From NCBI GenBank assembly GCA_028693395.1, contig JAQUVJ010000003.1, positions 2,298 to 66,297 on the forward strand: a stretch of DNA of 64,000 nucleotides. The letters are read 5' to 3'. Numbering within the stretch: position 1 is the first letter of the stretch; each line of letters opens with the position of its first letter. Made by a program: the position numbers and the translations under genes. A model generated the notes under the pieces. The model searched no databases. It was not told where the DNA came from and saw nothing but the letters and a program-made list of their open reading frames with translations. This DNA comes from Candidatus Nanoarchaeia archaeon (GTDB lineage: Archaea > Nanobdellota > Nanobdellia > Woesearchaeales > JAQUVJ01). This document shows, piece by piece, positions 1 to 16,718 of this stretch.

Positions 1-335
1 ACTAAACAAACAGCATGATTCCAAAACAAACCAGAAAAAGTTTTCATTTTAAATTTTGATATTATTTTTGAATCATAATTTCTTTTTTCTAAAAGATGTT
101 TGAGCACAATAGCATTTTCTAAACATCCTAAAGTAACTTTACTAAATATTATTTCATTTGCATTTCTTTTTAAATACATCTGATTAAAATTTAATAAATT
201 TCCTTTTTCATCATATTTTAATTTTTCATATTTATTTTTAGGTTTATTTTTTTTTGCATTTTTTAAATTTTTATTAATCCAATTTATACATTCAAAAAAA
301 TATGTATAATCATTTTCTAAAAAATTATCAACCAT
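1..335 (-). CDS. Transglutaminase-like cysteine protease (lasso-peptide B2 / McjB C-terminal-like, PF13471-like). Partial: the 3' end runs off the left window edge.
   Basis: Not in the ORF track; I translated it by hand. It reads MVDNFLENDYTYFFECINWINKNLKNAKKNKPKNKYEKLKYDEKGNLLNFNQMYLKRNANEIIFSKVTLGCLENAIVLKHLLEKRNYDSKIISKFKMKTFSGLFWNHAVCL with no stop before position 1. The segment GCLENAIVLKHLLEKRNYDSKII...FWNHAVC matches the Cys...(about 35 aa)...HAW pattern of the Transglut_core3 family. Its ATG (333-335) overlaps the stop of the upstream rSAM gene (ATGGTTGA). Confidence 0.55.
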   Translation of the reverse strand, partial: MVDNFLENDYTYFFECINWINKNLKNAKKNKPKNKYEKLKYDEKGNLLNFNQMYLKRNANEIIFSKVTLGCLENAIVLKHLLEKRNYDSKIISKFKMKTFSGLFWNHAVCL

Positions 336-1395
336 TAATAACATCACCTAAATCTTTTTTTATAACACTAAATAATGTTTTATAAAGTTTACAAAATGGC
401 GTTTTTTCTGAAGATCTATTTGTTAAGCTATCGGAATAACATCCTCCATTACAATTATCTAAAAATTCACAACCATTGCATTCTTGATATATTTTTTTAT
501 AATGTACATATTGCTTTTTAATAACATCTGACCTTAATATTTCTTCCAGTTTTGTTTCCAATATATTTCCTAACTTAAAATCATTATTATTTACAAGACG
601 ATTACAAACATATAGATCACCTAAAGAATCTAATGCTAAAAAAGAAAAACAAGATTCACAAGACAATGAACAAACATTACTTCTATTGAATAATAAACTT
701 TCAGTCATTTCTACAAAAGGATTTAAAATAATTCTTTTATCATCATTTTTCCATATTTCATAAAGATTTCTATATATTTCAATAACTTTATCAATATTAA
801 AAGAAAAATTCTTAGAATTTTTACCCATTCTTATATATGGATTTAAATTTGCTTTTTCAGTTATATCAATTAAATTTTCATATAATTTTTCTTCTAATCC
901 AAAAAAACTATCACTAATAACAGATATAGTTGAATAATTTATTTTATAATATTTTAACATATCAATAGCATTCAAAACTTTATCAAAACTTTCATCTCCA
1001 TTTTTAAAAAATCGAAAATTATTATGAATTTCCCTTATTGGTTCTAAACTTATTCCGACTTTCATTTTTGTTAATTCAAAAAGTTTTACAAAATTCTCAT
1101 CAATTAAAGTACCATTTGTTTGTATAGATTGTTTTATATCAGATTTATCAAAATATTTTTTCAAAACCTTATTTGCTTCATAAAAAAAATCATATCCAGC
1201 AAGAGTTGGTTCTCCACCATGCCAAATAATTCCCAATTTTTTTATTCCTACTCTTTTTGATTCACTAAATAATCTATCCAATGTATCTATATTTACAATA
1301 TTATTTTTTCTTGAATCCCTATAACAATACAAACAATCAAGGTTACAATTATCTGTAACATGAATTAAAAAATTTTGTCTATACAGAAAAAACAC
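328..1395 (-). CDS. Radical SAM enzyme with a C-terminal SPASM domain (peptide-modifying / anSME-like maturase)
   Basis: The N-terminal CNLDCLYC is a CX3CX2C radical SAM cluster motif, and HGGEPTL is present. A complete SPASM signature is present: CFSFLALDSLGDLYVC (CX9GX4C), then CNGCEFLDNCNGGC (CX2CX5CX3C), then a later FC. The start is GTG, 3 nt after the stop of the upstream small ORF. There is no N-terminal RRE/PqqD-like extension. Confidence 0.85.
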   Translation of the reverse strand: MFFLYRQNFLIHVTDNCNLDCLYCYRDSRKNNIVNIDTLDRLFSESKRVGIKKLGIIWHGGEPTLAGYDFFYEANKVLKKYFDKSDIKQSIQTNGTLIDENFVKLFELTKMKVGISLEPIREIHNNFRFFKNGDESFDKVLNAIDMLKYYKINYSTISVISDSFFGLEEKLYENLIDITEKANLNPYIRMGKNSKNFSFNIDKVIEIYRNLYEIWKNDDKRIILNPFVEMTESLLFNRSNVCSLSCESCFSFLALDSLGDLYVCNRLVNNNDFKLGNILETKLEEILRSDVIKKQYVHYKKIYQECNGCEFLDNCNGGCYSDSLTNRSSEKTPFCKLYKTLFSVIKKDLGDVING

Positions 1396-1398
1396 CTT

Positions 1399-1665
1399 TC
1401 ATTTTCCATCTGAATACACATCCCAATGACTTCCCCATCCATCATTATCACTATGTGTGTCATAATGTTGAGAATATACATTAGAATTTACGTAAAAAGG
1501 TTTTGGCTTTATTGGTAAATCTAATTCATTTATTCCTAGAACTGAGACTAAAAATACATCTTCTGATTTTTCAAAAATTTCATTCCTTTTTGATTCAAAA
1601 GACATAATTATATCCACCAAATTACCTGATTTTTCTTCTTTTTTTAATATATGCATATAAACCAC
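1399..1665 (-). CDS. Candidate RiPP precursor peptide (Cys-free, aromatic/Asp-rich C-terminus). The likely true start is the ATG at 1605 (68 aa) or at 1656.
   Basis: This small ORF sits directly upstream of the SPASM rSAM gene and is coupled to it by a 3 nt gap. The C-terminus is FYVNSNVYSQHYDTHSDNDGWGSHWDVYSDGK. A GGTGG Shine-Dalgarno-like motif (1614-1618, minus strand) lies 8 nt before the ATG at 1605. The track start at 1665 is GTG. I recognise no homolog. Confidence 0.45.
   Translation of the reverse strand: MVYMHILKKEEKSGNLVDIIMSFESKRNEIFEKSEDVFLVSVLGINELDLPIKPKPFYVNSNVYSQHYDTHSDNDGWGSHWDVYSDGK
1614..1618 (-). promoter_or_regulatory. SD-like GGTGG upstream of the internal ATG (1605) of the candidate precursor ORF
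   Basis: The minus strand reads ttGGTGGAtataattATG. The same GGTGA/GGTGG-type motif precedes radA, the EF-1beta gene, rps15, tatA and the DUF5320-like gene in this window. Confidence 0.4.
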
Positions 1666-1877
1666 ATAATTTTAATATATGTATATTATATAAATCTTTT
1701 GTAATAATATGATTATTAAAAAAATATTATTATCTATGTTTAGATTTTAAATATTTTCTTTTTAAATTTATTTTTATTTAAATTTATATACTTGATTATT
1801 TTATATAAAATGTATCAACTATACGAAATATATGAAATAAATTAAATAAATGAAATAAAAAACATTCAATCATAAAA

Positions 1878-2729
1878 ATGATAATCAATCTAGACAAAAC
1901 ATCAACAAAAGAAGATGTAGGAAATAAAGCATATAATCTAATGCTATTAAAAAAATATAATTATAATGTTCCTAATGGAATAGTCATTTCATCTAAATAT
2001 ACAAATACTTTAATAAAAAATATTAAAGAAAAAGTTTTAAAAAATCTAAACGATCAAATCATGTCAAATAAAAAAAATTTTGAAAAATTTATAAAAGAAA
2101 TAAACAATGATTTTAATAAATTAAAATTAGATGAAGAATTAATAAAAGATATAAAAAATCAATTAACAAAAAACAAAACTAAAAAATTCGTAGTAAGAAG
2201 CAGTACTAATTTTGAAGATTCGAAAAATTTCTCTTTTGCAGGACAATTTGATTCATTTTTAAATGTTAAAATTGAAGAATTAGAAAAATACATTTTAAAA
2301 TGTATAAAATCTACTTTTTCAAGAAGAATGTTAAAATACACTTTCTTAAATAAAATAAAATTAGATAATATTTCCATATCTGTAATAATTCAAGAAATGA
2401 TTATTGGAAAATATAGTGGAATTGCATTTTCAAAAAATCCAATTAATAATAATGAAAACGAAATAATAATTGATATCGGTCCTGGACTTTGCAATAATTA
2501 TGTATCAGGAAAGAAAAACCCAAACACATATATATTAAAAAAAAATGAAAACATAAAAACTTGTCTTTCCATAGAAAATAAAATAAAAAACGAAGATGAA
2601 ATACTAAAAACAATAAAAAAAAATATATTAGAAATTGAAAAAAAATTTGAAAATTTCATAGATATTGAATTTACATTTGATAAAGAAAATAATTTTTTTA
2701 TTTTACAAGCAAGACCAATAACAAATTAA
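1878..2729 (+). CDS. Stand-alone PEP synthase / pyruvate phosphate dikinase N-terminal ATP-grasp domain protein (PPDK_N, PF01326-like)
   Basis: VGNKAYNLMLLKKYNYNVPNGIVIS matches the GGKxxNL...G.PVP.GF.I motif. VVRSSTNFEDSKNFSFAGQFDSFLNV matches VRSSAxxEDxxxxSFAGQ..t.LNV. The C-terminal IDIEFTFDKENNFFILQARPIT matches DIEWa...l.ivQaRP.T. At 283 aa there is no phospho-His swivel domain and no PEP-binding domain. Confidence 0.8.
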   Translation: MIINLDKTSTKEDVGNKAYNLMLLKKYNYNVPNGIVISSKYTNTLIKNIKEKVLKNLNDQIMSNKKNFEKFIKEINNDFNKLKLDEELIKDIKNQLTKNKTKKFVVRSSTNFEDSKNFSFAGQFDSFLNVKIEELEKYILKCIKSTFSRRMLKYTFLNKIKLDNISISVIIQEMIIGKYSGIAFSKNPINNNENEIIIDIGPGLCNNYVSGKKNPNTYILKKNENIKTCLSIENKIKNEDEILKTIKKNILEIEKKFENFIDIEFTFDKENNFFILQARPITN

Positions 2730-3320: not shown

Positions 3321-3374
<54 letters not shown>

Positions 3375-3375
<1 letters not shown>

Positions 3376-3731
3376 TATTTATTTTTTTCATCATTTACAA
3401 TAAGAGATATTCCATCAATCAATTTATACATTTGAGAGAAATCAGTACTTTCTTCTTGAATTAATTTTTTGATTTGTTTAGATAAATTTTCAACTTCGTC
3501 TATTTCGAAAGTATCTTTATATTCAAATCTTTCATGAGGATAAGCTTCTTTATATGTTATAAACGGTGTCTTTTTTAAAATATATTCTGAATTAGATAAG
3601 CCCATATAACTACGATACCAATCTTCATCTTTTAATATTAATTCTAAAGCTCCACACAATCCTCCTAAAAAATTATTATAATCATAACTTACTCCAATAT
3701 TGTTTAATTGAGGAACTTGTTTTTTATTCAT
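3375..3731 (-). CDS. Hypothetical protein (track ORF trimmed to the internal ATG)
   Basis: The N-terminal 49 aa of the track ORF 3375..3878 is a poly-F/L translation of an A-rich spacer. The sequence from MNKKQVPQLNNIGVSYDYNNF onward has normal composition. Confidence 0.45.
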
Positions 3732-3947
3732 AAAAATAAAAATAAATTTTATTATATAAAAGTACTTATTTATAATTTTAATATAAAAATGAAATAGAAA
3801 AAATAGAAAAAATAAAAATAAAAAACATCTAAAAACAAAAAAAAACAAAAAAAAACAAAAAAAACAAAAAATTAACAAATCTAAAAATCCAATATCCTAT
3901 ATATAAAAAATCTATACATTTTTATAAATAAAAAAAATCTAATAAAT

Positions 3948-5438: not shown

Positions 5439-6719
5439 TTATTTTTTTAGAGGATCTCTTAAAGTTAAAACATAACTTCCTTCTTCTCTACTTTTTGGAA
5501 AATATGTTCTTGCCGCTTCTTGAATATCTTTAGGAGTTATTTTTTTTACTTGTTCTAAATATTCCAATTGTGAAAAATCATAATTTTCAGCAAGATATAT
5601 CATACCACTTAATTTTCTAACATCTTTAATGTCTTTATACATTCTGTATTCTATTCTTTTTTTTACATATTCTAATTCTTCTTCTGAAACAAGAGTTTCT
5701 CTTAATTGAGACATTACATCAAAAATTAAATCTATTGCATAATCAGATTTTAAAGATTTAATATTTCCTTTTATTGATAATTCTCCATAATTTACTTCAG
5801 AAAAATTTAAAGATTTAATATTGTATGCCAAACCTTCTTTTCTACTAATAAGTTTAAATAATCTTGAATTAGAATTTCCACAAAAAATATCATTTAAAAC
5901 ATCAACAAATGGAGTGTTTTCATTCTTCAAAGGTATTGTTGGAATACTTAAAATTAATTCGGAATTACTTTCATTTGCATTTATTTTATTTAATAAATCA
6001 GGAGCTTTATGATGAAAAAACTTTACATGATTTATTAATTTATTTTCTGGTATAATAAATTTATCAAATTCTGATTTTCTATATTTTCCAAAATACGAAT
6101 CTATTATTTCTTCAATATTTTTTGGGATTCCTCCTATTACATTTAAAAATACATTATTAATATTATAATTTCTAGTATAAAAATCTCGAATTGTTTGAAT
6201 ATCAAAACTCTTAAGCATCATTTCATTTCCAAGAACTTCCCTTAACATTAAAGAATTTTTTCCTAAAAAAGATTCTTTATGTAATTTATCATGAAAATAA
6301 TTTGGTTTACTTAATTTATTTGAAATTTCTCTTAAAACCCTTTGTCTTTCTCGTTCTATTTTTTCAAGATCAAATCTTTGATTAAATACTATTTCAGAAA
6401 AATAATCTAAAATTTGTAAAAAGTCATCTTTTAAAGAATCAACATAAAATAATGTTCTTTTTAAACTTGTAGAAGCATTAGATTCGCCAAAAGTATTCTT
6501 TATTTTTTCAATTTCTAATGGAGAATATTTTTTTGACCCAGCATTGTTAACAATATGTTCTAAAAAATGTGCAAGTCCATCTTCATCTTTTTTTTCACTT
6601 GTAGCACCACTATTTACAATTAGTTCAACATAAACTGTTGGTTCATCGTTTTCTTTATAATTAACTTTAAAGCCATTATCTAATTGTAATTGTTCATATC
6701 TTAAAGCATCTTCCAACAT
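5439..6719 (-). CDS. M16 family (pitrilysin-like) zinc peptidase
   Basis: HFLEHIV is the inverted HxxEH zinc motif. The length and two-domain layout are typical. Confidence 0.8.
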   Translation of the reverse strand: MLEDALRYEQLQLDNGFKVNYKENDEPTVYVELIVNSGATSEKKDEDGLAHFLEHIVNNAGSKKYSPLEIEKIKNTFGESNASTSLKRTLFYVDSLKDDFLQILDYFSEIVFNQRFDLEKIERERQRVLREISNKLSKPNYFHDKLHKESFLGKNSLMLREVLGNEMMLKSFDIQTIRDFYTRNYNINNVFLNVIGGIPKNIEEIIDSYFGKYRKSEFDKFIIPENKLINHVKFFHHKAPDLLNKINANESNSELILSIPTIPLKNENTPFVDVLNDIFCGNSNSRLFKLISRKEGLAYNIKSLNFSEVNYGELSIKGNIKSLKSDYAIDLIFDVMSQLRETLVSEEELEYVKKRIEYRMYKDIKDVRKLSGMIYLAENYDFSQLEYLEQVKKITPKDIQEAARTYFPKSREEGSYVLTLRDPLKK

Positions 6720-14270: not shown

Positions 14271-16718
14271 TTATTTACCATTTAACAAATTTGAAGGATT
14301 GTAATTTAAAAATTGTAAATAATTTGTATCTCCATTTTCATTTACTTTCTTAATAATCATATATTTTTCATTTATCAAATAATCATGAGTCTCAAAATGT
14401 TTTGTACATTCACTTTCTGTTTCCCAACAATCTTCATCTAAACATCCAACATAACCATTATTATTGATATCTTTTATTGATTCTATTTTACAATCTTCTC
14501 TTTCATTGGAATCATCTCCTATACAAGCTTCGTTATTAATTTTCATTGTTCTTTGAGTATATGTATGTTTTTGAGATTCATTCCATTCTGTTTTTACATT
14601 AAATATTTCTGAATATTTTTTACAATATTCTTTTTTTTCATCAGGATCAACCATTTGTCCATCATAACAAAAAATTCCATCATAACCATATATTTTTATA
14701 TTATTATCTGGATTGTCAGAAGTTAATATAATTAAATTCTTAGTTTTTGTTTTAAAATCAAATAAAGAATTTGTTGTTAAACCCAAATTATTTATATATG
14801 ATTCACGTGAAATTAATTTTATAACAACATCATCATCGTTTTTTTCATTTTCACATTTATCATAATCAACTTGAGATGATTTATCGTCTTCCAATTTATA
14901 AATAACACCTTTTTGATAAAAATTTGTTCCATAATAATTCTTTTCATTTAACAATTTATAAATATCATTTGAATCTGTTTTTACTAAAGTATCTATTTTA
15001 TTTCCTTTATTATTTTTTAAAGATTTTGCATAATTTGGAAAGAAATATAATAAATTATTAAAAGTTGATATCTTTCTTTTTGTAAAATCCACAACACACT
15101 TTCCATCAAAGCATTCTCCAAATTCACTACAATCAAAAATTTTTCCAAACAATTTACCATCTAAAATAAATTTTTTTAATAAGAATGATTCATCAATACA
15201 ATATGATAATTGTTCATCATAATAATATTTTCCATCTTTATCTAAATTTTCTTCTTTTATTTCTTCTTTTAAAGGAAAAAAACCATAACTTTTTTCATTA
15301 TTTTCTTCTTTATCTCCTAGAAAAAAATTAACTAATGAACCATGTGATGCTTTTACAATAGTATTAAAAAAATTTTCTACATTATCTTTTGTTAAATATA
15401 ATACTTTTTTGGTTTTTATTAATGGATCTAAAGCTTTTAATATTTCATCTGGATCTTCAAATAATCCTTTTTCTGGAGTTAAATAAAAATCATTACAATT
15501 ATCTTGATTTATTTGATAATAATAATTATTATTATTGTTTATGTTTTGATCTTTTTCCCATTCATATCCTAAACCTTCGCATACATATTGAGAAAAATCA
15601 TCATCAACACATCTTCCTTCAAAACAATAATTTGTCTCTACATTTTTTAAATTAATAATTTTTTGACCATTTGAATTTATAATATCTGAATTAAATTTAG
15701 TTGCAACATCACTACATTTTACTTCCTTAGTTACAAATTTATCTACTTCTTGAAGATAAATTCTTTCTACTAATGTTTCTGAATCTAAACAATAATCTCT
15801 GTTTAATAATTCAAACATATCACCTTTTGAATCATACTTATATAAATTACCTTGAAGAAAATAATTTGAATAAAAATAATAGTAATTAGCATCATATAAT
15901 TCTTTTTCCATTTTTACTCTTTCCATATTACCTTTTTCTTGCATATAGATATTATTTCTCTTTATGAAGAAATCTAAAAGATTATTAAAATCTGTTTTAT
16001 AATATTCTAATTTATTTTGTTTATCGTTTAAATTTGTTTTTTCATATTCTTCAATTTTAGTTTCTTTACCTTCTTTAATTATAGTTTTAATTATAAGTAC
16101 ATCAAAAAAATTATTGAATTTAATTAAAAAATTATTATCTATTTTATTATTACTTTTATATTGTTTTAATATATCAACAACACATTTACCTTCACTACAA
16201 CTACCATATTCTGAACAATCATATATTTTATATGCTGTTGAACTGTTATCAAAAACAATTTGACGACCCTTTTCTTCATCAATAATTCCTCTCTTTATTA
16301 AAAAACGATTATCTAAACAAAAAGAATTTAAAAATTCAGAACTATTAAAAATAAATAAACCATAAGGTCTATTAAAAATATTATTTGAATTTTCTATATC
16401 ATTTTTTAAATAATTATATTCTAAGTTTGAAACATCTGGTACAAAAGGATCGAATGTTTTTAGATGTGGAAATGAATCATCATAATCATTACCAAACCAT
16501 CCTGCAATAAGTCCTGTTTGAATTTCTTCATATAGTCTAGGTGATGATTGAAATGATAAAACAAAATCTATGTTTAAGAAAAAAAATGTAAATATTATTA
16601 ATATAAAAGAAAAAAAGAAGATATTTTTATTTTTATTATTTCTTCTTTTTATTATATTTACTTTATTATCTTTATTATTTTTATTATTATCAATATTCAT
16701 GATATTTAATATTCTCAT
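14271..16718 (-). CDS. Large secreted or membrane-anchored protein with repeated Cys motifs
   Basis: The N-terminal hydrophobic segment is IFFFSFILIIFTFFFLNIDFVLS. Internal repeats include FCLDNRFLIKRGIID...IYDCSEYGSCSEGKCVVD and YCIDESFLLKKFILD...IFDCSEFGECFDGKCVVD, with a degenerate third copy ending YCFEGRCVDDD. Confidence 0.6.
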   Translation of the reverse strand: MRILNIMNIDNNKNNKDNKVNIIKRRNNKNKNIFFFSFILIIFTFFFLNIDFVLSFQSSPRLYEEIQTGLIAGWFGNDYDDSFPHLKTFDPFVPDVSNLEYNYLKNDIENSNNIFNRPYGLFIFNSSEFLNSFCLDNRFLIKRGIIDEEKGRQIVFDNSSTAYKIYDCSEYGSCSEGKCVVDILKQYKSNNKIDNNFLIKFNNFFDVLIIKTIIKEGKETKIEEYEKTNLNDKQNKLEYYKTDFNNLLDFFIKRNNIYMQEKGNMERVKMEKELYDANYYYFYSNYFLQGNLYKYDSKGDMFELLNRDYCLDSETLVERIYLQEVDKFVTKEVKCSDVATKFNSDIINSNGQKIINLKNVETNYCFEGRCVDDDFSQYVCEGLGYEWEKDQNINNNNNYYYQINQDNCNDFYLTPEKGLFEDPDEILKALDPLIKTKKVLYLTKDNVENFFNTIVKASHGSLVNFFLGDKEENNEKSYGFFPLKEEIKEENLDKDGKYYYDEQLSYCIDESFLLKKFILDGKLFGKIFDCSEFGECFDGKCVVDFTKRKISTFNNLLYFFPNYAKSLKNNKGNKIDTLVKTDSNDIYKLLNEKNYYGTNFYQKGVIYKLEDDKSSQVDYDKCENEKNDDDVVIKLISRESYINNLGLTTNSLFDFKTKTKNLIILTSDNPDNNIKIYGYDGIFCYDGQMVDPDEKKEYCKKYSEIFNVKTEWNESQKHTYTQRTMKINNEACIGDDSNEREDCKIESIKDINNNGYVGCLDEDCWETESECTKHFETHDYLINEKYMIIKKVNENGDTNYLQFLNYNPSNLLNGK

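Follow-up and report, generated by a model that had tools for sequence, protein, structure and literature searches.

The closest described systems to the locus treated here are those of radical SAM (rSAM)/SPASM enzymes which form three-residue cyclophanes, the triceptides. YxdB, a bacterial anSME-like enzyme without an RRE and the prototype of the YxD kind, introduces Tyr-C3 to Asp-Cβ links into the YxD motifs of the small precursor YxdA, whose gene adjoins the maturase gene (Sugiyama et al. 2022 JACS, as summarised in PMC11002830). HaaB, HtkB and YhhB form His-C2 to Cβ links, yielding three-residue cyclophanes on H-x-x motifs (PMC11499958), and cyclophane rSAM enzymes such as DarE are closer to anaerobic sulfatase-maturating enzymes (anSME) than to other enzymes (PMC10288494). 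For transglutaminase-like leader peptidases the lasso B2 proteins are the precedent (PMC10885120). DynA and DarE are anSME-like rSAM/SPASM enzymes as well, crosslinking aromatic residues in short cores. Archaeal RiPPs are barely explored, and to our knowledge none has been characterised from DPANN lineages.

The window, i.e. the whole analysed stretch of 64,000 nucleotides, belongs to a DPANN archaeon ('Candidatus Nanoarchaeia archaeon'), the kind of host that the first-pass annotation had presumed. An ORF of 68 or 88 aa, an rSAM/SPASM gene and a third ORF lie in tandem on the minus strand, tightly spaced within about 2.3 kb:

1..335, minus strand: first 111 codons of a gene for a putative transglutaminase-like Cys-His-Asp enzyme, start ATG 335, cut by the window edge; whole gene at 1361..2299 of contig L001
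328..1395, minus strand: putative radical SAM/SPASM peptide maturase of 355 aa (PF04055 and PF13186)
1399..1605, minus strand: precursor peptide gene; the 68-aa form from ATG 1605 is favoured, an 88-aa form from GTG 1665 (1399..1665) is possible
1402..1476, minus strand: predicted core peptide, a conserved 25-residue segment with four (H/Y)-x-D motifs
1878..2729, plus strand: PPDK_N gene (PF01326 at 1.5e-50)

The genes are translationally coupled. The stop codon TGA of the peptide gene is followed by AAG and then by the GTG start of the rSAM gene, and the rSAM stop codon overlaps the start of the third ORF within ATGGTTGA. Gaps and overlaps between the cluster genes amount to 3 to 14 nt, and a ribosome-binding-like motif, GGTG(A), is located 5-8 nt ahead of each cluster start. 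The same trio is present in two further metagenomic contigs, L002 and L003, with rSAM identities to the window enzyme of 63 % and 94 %, respectively; thus the arrangement is more than chance and a real cluster, known from three loci of which two are near-identical. The RiPP-like cassette of precursor, rSAM-SPASM enzyme and Cys-His-Asp enzyme proposed in the first-pass annotation was borne out by gene layout, motifs and the conserved trio, including the expected conservation of the small ORF beside rSAM homologues. A transporter or RRE had been considered possible beyond the left edge; the recovered flank (L001) instead contained a small membrane protein and an archaeal pyrH, and an exporter was not found. 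The neighbours, i.e. the membrane protein, pyrH, PPDK_N, CBS and TruD, include neither a lasso-type Asn-synthetase-like cyclase, as had been stated, nor an RRE (B1/PqqD). The downstream membrane protein was rejected as a conserved partner, its homologue being found nowhere else. Of the 'divergent ATP-grasp', the predicted PF01326 assignment stood, but not the role as a cluster partner: the gene product is a PPDK_N domain on its own, and 90 related loci yielded no homologue of it. L002 has another gene upstream, oriented like the cluster.

The rSAM gene product, read from GTG 1395, matched PF04055 (2e-16) and PF13186 (3e-8), the two families anticipated for it. Its Fe-S motifs comprise the CX3CX2C motif of C17/C21/C24 and the full SPASM signature already noted in the annotation, with C249-x9-G-x4-C264 and C306-x2-C-x5-C-x3-C319; additional cysteines are C242, C246 and C335. 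An N-terminal RRE is absent, as had been supposed, because the CX3CX2C motif begins at residue 17 and leaves no room for it, and because the alignment to CteB begins at CteB chain residue 100. Apart from the enzymes of L002 and L003, identity to anything in the searched databases was at most 35 %. Among the NCBIfam equivalogs, every score was below the cut-off. The two top models were anSME (TIGR03942, 206.5 vs 349.45 bits) and DynA (NF041298, 202.6 vs 450), followed, for the triceptide synthases, by GrrM/OscB (127.8 vs 310), AmcB (122.2 vs 425), YhhB (114.6 vs 445), FxsB (95.8 vs 370) and XyeB (64.3 vs 450). The best PDB match was anSMEcpe (4K37, 2.5e-33).

For the precursor, the gene caller run on the identical Logan contig gave the 68-aa peptide, and a Shine-Dalgarno-like GGTGGA is present 7 nt upstream of ATG 1605. 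The peptide ORF is kept in L002 and L003. A peptide-profile search of 5.8e9 protein clusters returned the same three loci and no further homologue, and neither JGI metagenome contigs nor IMG/VR contained a match to a degenerate DNA pattern for HYDTHSDNDGWG. The predicted core, YSQHYDTHSDNDGWGSHWDVYSDGK, is devoid of Cys, and the consensus of the C-terminal 25 residues is Y(S/A)QHYDTHSDNDGWG(S/D)HWDVYSDGK. Its four (His/Tyr)-x-Asp motifs, HYD, HSD, HWD and YSD, are invariant in the three loci. Between the window and L002, the 25 core codons differed by 7 synonymous and 2 amino-acid-changing substitutions, the 40 codons preceding them by 6 synonymous and 28 amino-acid-changing ones. The C-terminal 25 residues are under strong purifying selection. 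The leader is variable overall, but a patch LG(I/V)N(E/K)L(D/E)(L/I)PIK is conserved. All three precursors share Gln46 in the core and Lys68 at the C-terminus, and the Trp residues in WGS and WDV are conserved. These Trp residues could be actual crosslink sites.

Peptides of this kind are found beside related rSAM genes. Every one of the nearest other rSAM relatives (31-35 % identity) adjoins a small aromatic peptide, with HVD/HVD/YVD/HTD plus NDWGGS in L004, YCD/YSD/YSD in L008 and KKSWINSYMCSA in L006 and L007. Across 87 related loci with 7060 small ORFs, 18 ORFs contained three or more aromatic-x-Asp motifs in a span of 30 aa; 15 of the 18 adjoin the rSAM gene and share its strand, an enrichment next to related rSAM genes. 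The host lineages of these loci include Woesearchaeota, Methanosarcinales, Patescibacteria, Bacteroidales and Chloroflexi, and comparable repeat peptides are encoded next to related rSAM genes in no fewer than 10 other bacterial and archaeal genomes. The motif count alone is no proof of register, since acidic, aromatic-rich peptides contain aromatic-x-Asp by composition; what the distant loci have in common is aromatic-x-Asp at i/i+2 spacing. Aromatic-x-Asp precursors next to anSME-like rSAM genes are widely distributed, from DPANN and methanogens to CPR bacteria, Bacteroidales and Chloroflexi, and this distribution can help to correct widespread mis-annotations as 'anaerobic sulfatase maturase'.

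As in triceptide systems, for which an RRE is not required, an rSAM/SPASM maturase gene adjoins a precursor gene in whose product aromatic(1)-X(2)-X(3) motifs are conserved. With a probability of about 0.55, the operon encodes a triceptide-type RiPP of the YxD kind, with crosslink chemistry, ring number and protease function as predicted traits. With YxdA/YxdB, which were compared by description, the locus has in common the RRE-less anSME-like maturase and a small adjoining precursor with repeated aromatic-x-Asp three-residue motifs. It differs in the archaeal host, the mixture of His- and Tyr-x-Asp motifs, the conserved Trp and the coupled downstream transglutaminase-like enzyme, and its crosslink chemistry is a prediction. 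Three of the four motifs start with His, as do the H-x-x motifs of HaaB, HtkB and YhhB (PMC11499958), whereas the third residue of those is Ala, Lys or Arg in place of Asp, and the YhhB model is far from its cut-off. The 68-aa precursor would consist of the variable leader and the conserved core with its four motifs, into which the rSAM/SPASM enzyme would most likely introduce three-residue cyclophanes. The 5'-deoxyadenosyl radical would abstract a hydrogen from the β-carbon of Asp, and the resulting radical would add to the aromatic ring two positions upstream, at Tyr C3 or His C2. As many as four small rings are predicted, with a mass loss of 2 Da each. The coupled 312-aa product of the third gene most likely removes the leader. 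If the chemistry holds, His/Tyr-to-Asp cyclophane formation is extended to archaea and the RiPP toolbox gains an unrecognised transglutaminase-like processing enzyme.

The rSAM enzyme may act on the same peptide with another chemistry, e.g., a dynobactin- or darobactin-like C-N or C-O bridge, longer-range Trp crosslinks, a conversion of Asp to aminomalonate or an epimerisation, which we regard as rather unlikely. The DynA model nearly equals the anSME score, this group of cyclophane synthases is promiscuous, and the conserved Trp residues of the core offer further sites. Dynobactin chemistry includes a His-N to Tyr-Cβ link, and SjiB, a member of the promiscuous group, reportedly forms aminomalonate, as far as the title of the study by Ma et al. 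2021 tells. The DynA score is, however, far under the model's cut-off of 450 bits, and the distant loci share the i/i+2 spacing. An NSNV stretch, apparently similar to the dynobactin core, was rejected as a link to dynobactin because it is not conserved, reading IKSNV in L003 and KNFIY in L002; the core motifs are unrelated to those of the DynA/DarE systems once homologues are compared.

The third ORF encodes a protein of 312 aa once the left flank is recovered. It had zero matches in Pfam and NCBIfam, and a sequence search of the PDB returned noise only. On account of its GCLENAIVLKHLL...FWNHAVC segment it had been assigned to PF13471, the family of lasso B2 proteins. This identity was rejected: PF13471 matched neither the fragment nor the full protein, and the lasso_biosyn_B2 model (NF033537) reached E=0.1 and 13 bits vs a cut-off of 33 on the fragment, at the Cys helix, and nothing on the full protein. 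The full-length sequences among 5.8e9 protein clusters were P0001 and P0002 only, which makes the protein an orphan. A profile search of 1.84e9 proteins added P0123 (8e-5) and P0124 (4e-4), both PF01841 proteins. These two remote relatives provide no independent link to RiPPs, since they occur in housekeeping gene contexts without a SPASM rSAM. C71, H107 and D122-P-T are invariant (alignment A2), with the Cys-His-Asp triad in canonical order on a helix-then-strands core (helix 71-84, strands after it). The top Foldseek matches were all transglutaminase-like at E-values of only 6e-3 to 0.1: transglutaminase, the putative Cys protease 3isr, TglA, vasohibins, LapG and NATs. The full-length AF2 model, computed from an alignment of four sequences, was poor (pLDDT 56.6) with an uninterpretable C-terminal half. 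Judged from the transitive HMM matches to PF01841 proteins and from Foldseek, the N-terminal domain is probably transglutaminase-like with a conserved Cys71-His107-Asp122 triad. The third ORF would thus encode a divergent domain of this type, nearer to PF01841/DUF553, plus a C-terminal half, about 180 aa long, of no recognised family.

Transamidation and acyl transfer are further activities compatible with the transglutaminase-like fold. The 312-aa enzyme might act as a transamidase or acyltransferase instead of a leader peptidase, e.g., in closing an isopeptide macrocycle from the core Gln to the C-terminal Lys or in acylating the peptide, a possibility of low probability. True transglutaminases (4xz7), amide synthases (GdmF, CtaG) and N-acetyltransferases are among its Foldseek neighbours next to proteases, and Gln46 and Lys68 are invariant in three of three precursors, although invariance across three closely related sequences is weak. 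On the other side, proteases are represented by 3isr, LapG and the vasohibins, and the RiPP precedent for the fold, lasso B2, is proteolysis (PMC10885120). The probable triceptide-type operon is unusual in its helper enzyme, the 312-aa protein, which has not been seen before. Speculatively, this orphan may found a RiPP-processing family, a transglutaminase-like domain with a putative peptide-binding domain, as the first known leader peptidase dedicated to triceptide-type peptides or as a closer of Gln-Lys isopeptide macrocycles in addition to the rSAM rings. If true, a DPANN symbiont with a reduced genome would make a hybrid archaeal RiPP scaffold, for use perhaps against the host or in concert with it.

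The first-pass annotation had read the combination of an rSAM enzyme and a lasso-type protease as an undescribed RiPP class, which is now very improbable. The Cys/His motif of the third ORF resembles the peptidase-CA clan, and the weak NF033537 match coincides with the Cys helix. McjB (lasso B2, PF13471, MEROPS C96) likewise brings a transglutaminase-like Cys-His-Asp fold into a RiPP cluster, with presumed leader cleavage. In contrast to McjB, the full 312-aa protein has no significant PF13471 or NF033537 match and carries the additional domain of about 180 aa, and its cluster is without B1/RRE and without an Asn-synthetase-like cyclase; the only relatives detected for the protein, which belong to PF01841/DUF553, occur among housekeeping genes. 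The peptide/rSAM pair fits the known logic of YxD triceptides: by analogy to YxdB, compared by description only, the aromatic-x-Asp repeats match those processed by anSME-like rSAM/SPASM cyclophane synthases, and the core logic is not that of an undescribed class (PMC11002830).

That the rSAM enzyme is an anaerobic sulfatase-maturating enzyme with an incidental small ORF beside it can practically be dismissed, although TIGR03942 is its top NCBIfam model and anSMEcpe 4K37 and AslB are its top fold and sequence neighbours with the same three-cluster SPASM architecture: the TIGR03942 score is far under the cut-off; selection acts on the small ORF, which is conserved; in an NJ tree without bootstrap support the enzyme branches outside the clade of sulfatase-linked homologues; tblastn with E. 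coli AslA gave zero matches both in the 64-kb window and in the L001 flank on its left, while 11 other loci carry a sulfatase beside the rSAM gene; and the cluster-ligating Cys is followed by Asn in the window (C264-N265) vs C-D-H in 12 of 12 sulfatase-linked homologues, E. coli AslB included. Asn265 occupies the position of Asp277 in the C276-D277 pair of anSMEcpe, the reportedly catalytic Asp (Goldman et al. 2013). On these grounds, the window rSAM is not a sulfatase maturase, in agreement with the earlier annotation. As to its translation start, a conserved AAAGGTG may serve as ribosome-binding site for an aligned CTG/TTG codon, instead of the start at GTG 1395.

At the left edge of the window, which has a G+C content of about 20 % throughout, three minus-strand genes follow each other closely beside a divergent fourth gene:

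1399..1665, minus strand: small peptide ORF, 88 aa from GTG or 68 aa from the ATG at 1605
328..1395, minus strand: radical SAM/SPASM enzyme (rSAM), 355 aa
335 to beyond the left edge, minus strand: third ORF, starting with ATG and leaving the window after 111 codons (raw sequence and ORF listing)
1878..2729, plus strand: PPDK_N gene, a stand-alone PF01326 domain (Pfam, 1.5e-50) as predicted by the first-pass annotation

Raw sequence and ORF listing bore out what that annotation had read directly from the DNA, namely ORFs, junctions and cysteine motifs. The TGA stop of the peptide gene is followed by AAG and then GTG, and ATGGTTGA contains both the rSAM stop and the start of the third gene. An exact-protein look-up gave the left flank, a Logan contig of 3.5 kb (L001) whose sequence matches the window edge exactly. 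There the third ORF is complete at 312 aa, and next come a membrane protein of 156 aa and an archaeal UMP kinase, instead of the further partners (transporter, RRE) that had been suggested. Transporter, RRE and lasso cyclase were absent on either side of the cluster. As expected for rSAM homologues, the small ORF recurred with a conserved core: the trio is present on the sister loci L002 (rSAM 63 %, third protein 58 % identical) and L003 (rSAM 94 % identical, third ORF cut by the contig end). We assign a probability of about 0.85 to a peptide-modifying operon.

The C-terminus is invariant in the three peptides, reading Y(S/A)QHYDTHSDNDGWG(S/D)HWDVYSDGK, while the N-terminal part has diverged save one conserved patch, LG(I/V)N(E/K)L(D/E)(L/I)PIK. 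Between window and L002, the last 25 codons (core) differ by 7 synonymous and 2 amino-acid-changing substitutions, the preceding 40 leader codons by 6 and 28, respectively. Judged by its sequence, the small ORF is a real gene under selection. A GGTGGA motif lies 7 nt upstream of the ATG at 1605, and GGTG(A)-like motifs likewise precede the rSAM and the third gene in both window and L002, which speaks for the 68-aa form and for true translational coupling. AAAGGTG is kept between peptide and rSAM (window 1396-1402; L002 393-403), its GTG being in frame only in the window; the rSAM of L002 starts with TTG 5 nt downstream of the GTG, where the aligned window codon is CTG. Thus the start of the window rSAM is uncertain by four codons. 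AAAGGTG may act as ribosome-binding site instead of start codon. The core holds four triplets of the (H/Y)-x-D type, HYD, HSD, HWD and YSD, and lacks cysteine, which rules out thioether chemistry of the sacti- or ranthipeptide kind.

Small peptides likewise adjoin the closest relatives of the rSAM (31-35 % identity): in L004, an ORF without a gene call, which overlaps the start of the rSAM, reads HVDLEHVDNGYVDSHTDTYYNDWGGSD, the peptide of L008 ...AYCDDYSDSYSDDGDND, and a 37-aa peptide with the C-terminal KKSWINSYMCSA is accompanied by an amidohydrolase in L006 and L007. Of all 7060 ORFs of 20-130 aa on both strands of 87 related loci, only 18 had three or more aromatic-x-Asp triplets within a stretch of 30 residues, and 15 of these 18 immediately precede or follow the rSAM gene on the same strand. 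One such peptide each was present in L001-L004 and L008 (the cluster itself, sister loci and metagenomic relatives) and, with organisms as named in the source records, in Methanosarcinales (L068), Patescibacteria (L022), Kiritimatiellae (L064), Muribaculaceae of the Bacteroidales (L015), Pelolinea of the Chloroflexi (L029) and Chloroflexi (L040); two were found in Bacteroidales (L018) and two in tandem in Woesearchaeota (L011). HSDH(I/T)D or WG(E/S)H strings are common to the window core and several of the rSAM-flanking peptides.

In triceptides, rSAM/SPASM enzymes termed "3-CyFE" cyclise motifs of the form aromatic(1)-X(2)-X(3) (PMC11499958). YxdB of the characterised YxD subtype joins Tyr C3 to Asp Cβ (PMC11002830); HaaB, HtkB and YhhB join His C2 to the β-carbon of the third residue (PMC11002830; PMC11499958). 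The window core and the relatives' peptides show the same precursor logic. From the core triplets and the rSAM-flanking peptides we propose by analogy that the rSAM would form as many as four cyclophanes on the core, each spanning three residues. None of the named triceptide-synthase models of NCBIfam reached its own cut-off with the rSAM, and we rate this chemistry at slightly better than even odds. The earlier RiPP reading stands in outline. The core logic is that of a known class, rSAM cyclophane/triceptide peptides of the aromatic-x-Asp type, not of a new rSAM-plus-lasso class. New are the DPANN host, the very divergent maturase and an orphan, putatively transglutaminase-like enzyme that also carries an unknown domain and has to date been seen only in this small lineage (window, L002, L003).

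Precursor-like ORFs rich in aromatic-x-Asp and directly downstream of the rSAM, not upstream, were seen in L011 (4007-4589), L068 (4127-4384), L022 (4131-4379) and L064 (4076-4369). The 37-aa peptide, an Amidohydro_2 protein and an rSAM/SPASM enzyme (P0007 and P0006, 33-35 % identical to the window rSAM) form another conserved trio in L006 (3949-6098) and L007 (3974-6137), which resembles a further RiPP cassette, as yet uncharacterised, with W-x-N and Y-x-C motifs. In L004 (2969-3247), the candidate precursor next to P0005, not a called gene on the source contig, has a hydrophobic, membrane-helix-like tail (TCLVILAIFALLAIITEC), unusual in RiPP precursors; downstream are genes for a TIR-WD40 protein and a reverse transcriptase.

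The 312-aa protein, annotated by NCBI as a hypothetical protein of a 'Candidatus Nanoarchaeia archaeon', had no match in Pfam, NCBIfam or PDB sequences. A PF13471 domain had been predicted on 1..335; Pfam was empty there, and NCBIfam lasso_biosyn_B2 gave only E = 0.1 (13 bits, cut-off 33). Among 5.8 billion protein clusters one homologue was found, P0002. A full HMMER search of 1.84 billion representatives with a profile of these two sequences added only P0123 (8.4e-5) and P0124 (3.6e-4) over residues 6-173; both are true members of PF01841 Transglut_core (1.7e-12 and 7.1e-11), and P0123 is DUF553 as well. C71 (in G-C), H107 and D122-P-T are invariant in the four-sequence alignment. AF2 modelled residues 1-140 with a mean pLDDT of 75.8 (pTM 0.72) and the full length with 56.6 (pTM 0.41), leaving the C-terminal half unresolved. 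Top Foldseek matches in the PDB were essentially only transglutaminase-fold Cys-His-Asp enzymes, at modest E-values of 6e-3 to 0.1: TGase 4xz7, the putative cysteine protease 3isr (TM-score 0.52, probability 1.00), TglA, vasohibins, LapG, the amide synthases GdmF and CtaG, and arylamine N-acetyltransferases. Profile matches, invariant residues and fold matches support a predicted transglutaminase-like protein at superfamily level, not a PF13471 lasso B2 protein. The tight coupling and the precedent of transglutaminase-like leader peptidases in lasso clusters (PMC10885120) tentatively suggest a leader peptidase, at slightly less than even odds. The remote relatives P0123 and P0124 reside in housekeeping contexts without SPASM enzymes; other aromatic-x-Asp loci lack a homologue, and their downstream genes are varied or without assigned function, with one MA-clan peptidase-like gene in L022. 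The 312-aa protein may alternatively be a transamidase that, e.g., joins two residues of the precursor, Gln46, which is invariant, and Lys68 at the C-terminus.

The rSAM matched PF04055 (2e-16) and PF13186 SPASM (3e-8), as predicted, and has the motifs C17-x3-C-x2-C24, C249-x9-G-x4-C264 and C306-x2-C-x5-C-x3-C319, with further cysteines at 242, 246 and 335. Its best solved-structure match was the anaerobic sulfatase-maturating enzyme anSMEcpe (2.5e-33), and its top NCBIfam models were TIGR03942 anSME (206.5 bits, cut-off 349.45) and DynA (202.6, cut-off 450), followed by about 20 RiPP maturase models, each far under its own cut-off. The cyclophane-forming DarE resembles anSME more than other known enzymes, thus an anSME-like score is expected for this enzyme group (PMC10288494). 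A sulfatase maturase, the alternative raised by the first-pass annotation, is disfavoured by the sub-cut-off score, the lack of a nearby sulfatase, the tree position and an Asn in place of Asp. In tblastn with E. coli AslA, 11 of 80 genome loci had a sulfatase next to the rSAM; none occurred in the window, L001-L008 or any aromatic-x-Asp peptide locus. AslB and all sulfatase-linked enzymes formed one clade in a neighbour-joining tree without bootstrap, outside which the window enzyme grouped with L002, L004 and L006/L007. The residue after the cluster-ligating cysteine is Asp in anSMEcpe (C276-D277), reported to be the catalytic base, and Asp-His follows in 12 of 12 sulfatase-linked sequences; the window enzyme has Asn, its nearest relatives Gly, His or Asn. 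Among the anSME-like rSAMs of L009-L088, the dipeptide after the auxiliary-cluster cysteine splits the contexts cleanly, C-D-H in every sulfatase-linked and C-G/N/H-R in most peptide-linked enzymes, and might be used to filter annotations quickly.

The PPDK_N domain has an ATP-grasp type fold. As a cluster member the gene was rejected: all it has in common with the cluster is a divergent intergenic region of 212 bp, nothing connects it to the peptide, no homologue occurs at any related locus, and the upstream gene of L002 is a different one in cluster direction. Nearby genes of the window are in keeping with archaeal housekeeping surroundings (TruD, M16 peptidase, HisRS, RadA, DHH phosphoesterase, PP-loop ATPase). 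Some RiPPs are processed by M16 enzymes; nothing connects the insulinase-type M16 zinc peptidase (5439-6719, minus strand), 4 kb from the cluster, to the peptide, and PPDK_N, CBS, an ORF without assigned function and TruD lie between. An 815-aa ORF (14271-16718, minus strand) had no Pfam match at E ≤ 0.001. An ATT microsatellite of 19 copies and long A-rich arrays of low complexity (3325-3379 and 3785-3889) lie within and next to the ORF at 3375..3878 (minus strand), which also lacks a Pfam match and whose N-terminal part is probably non-coding.
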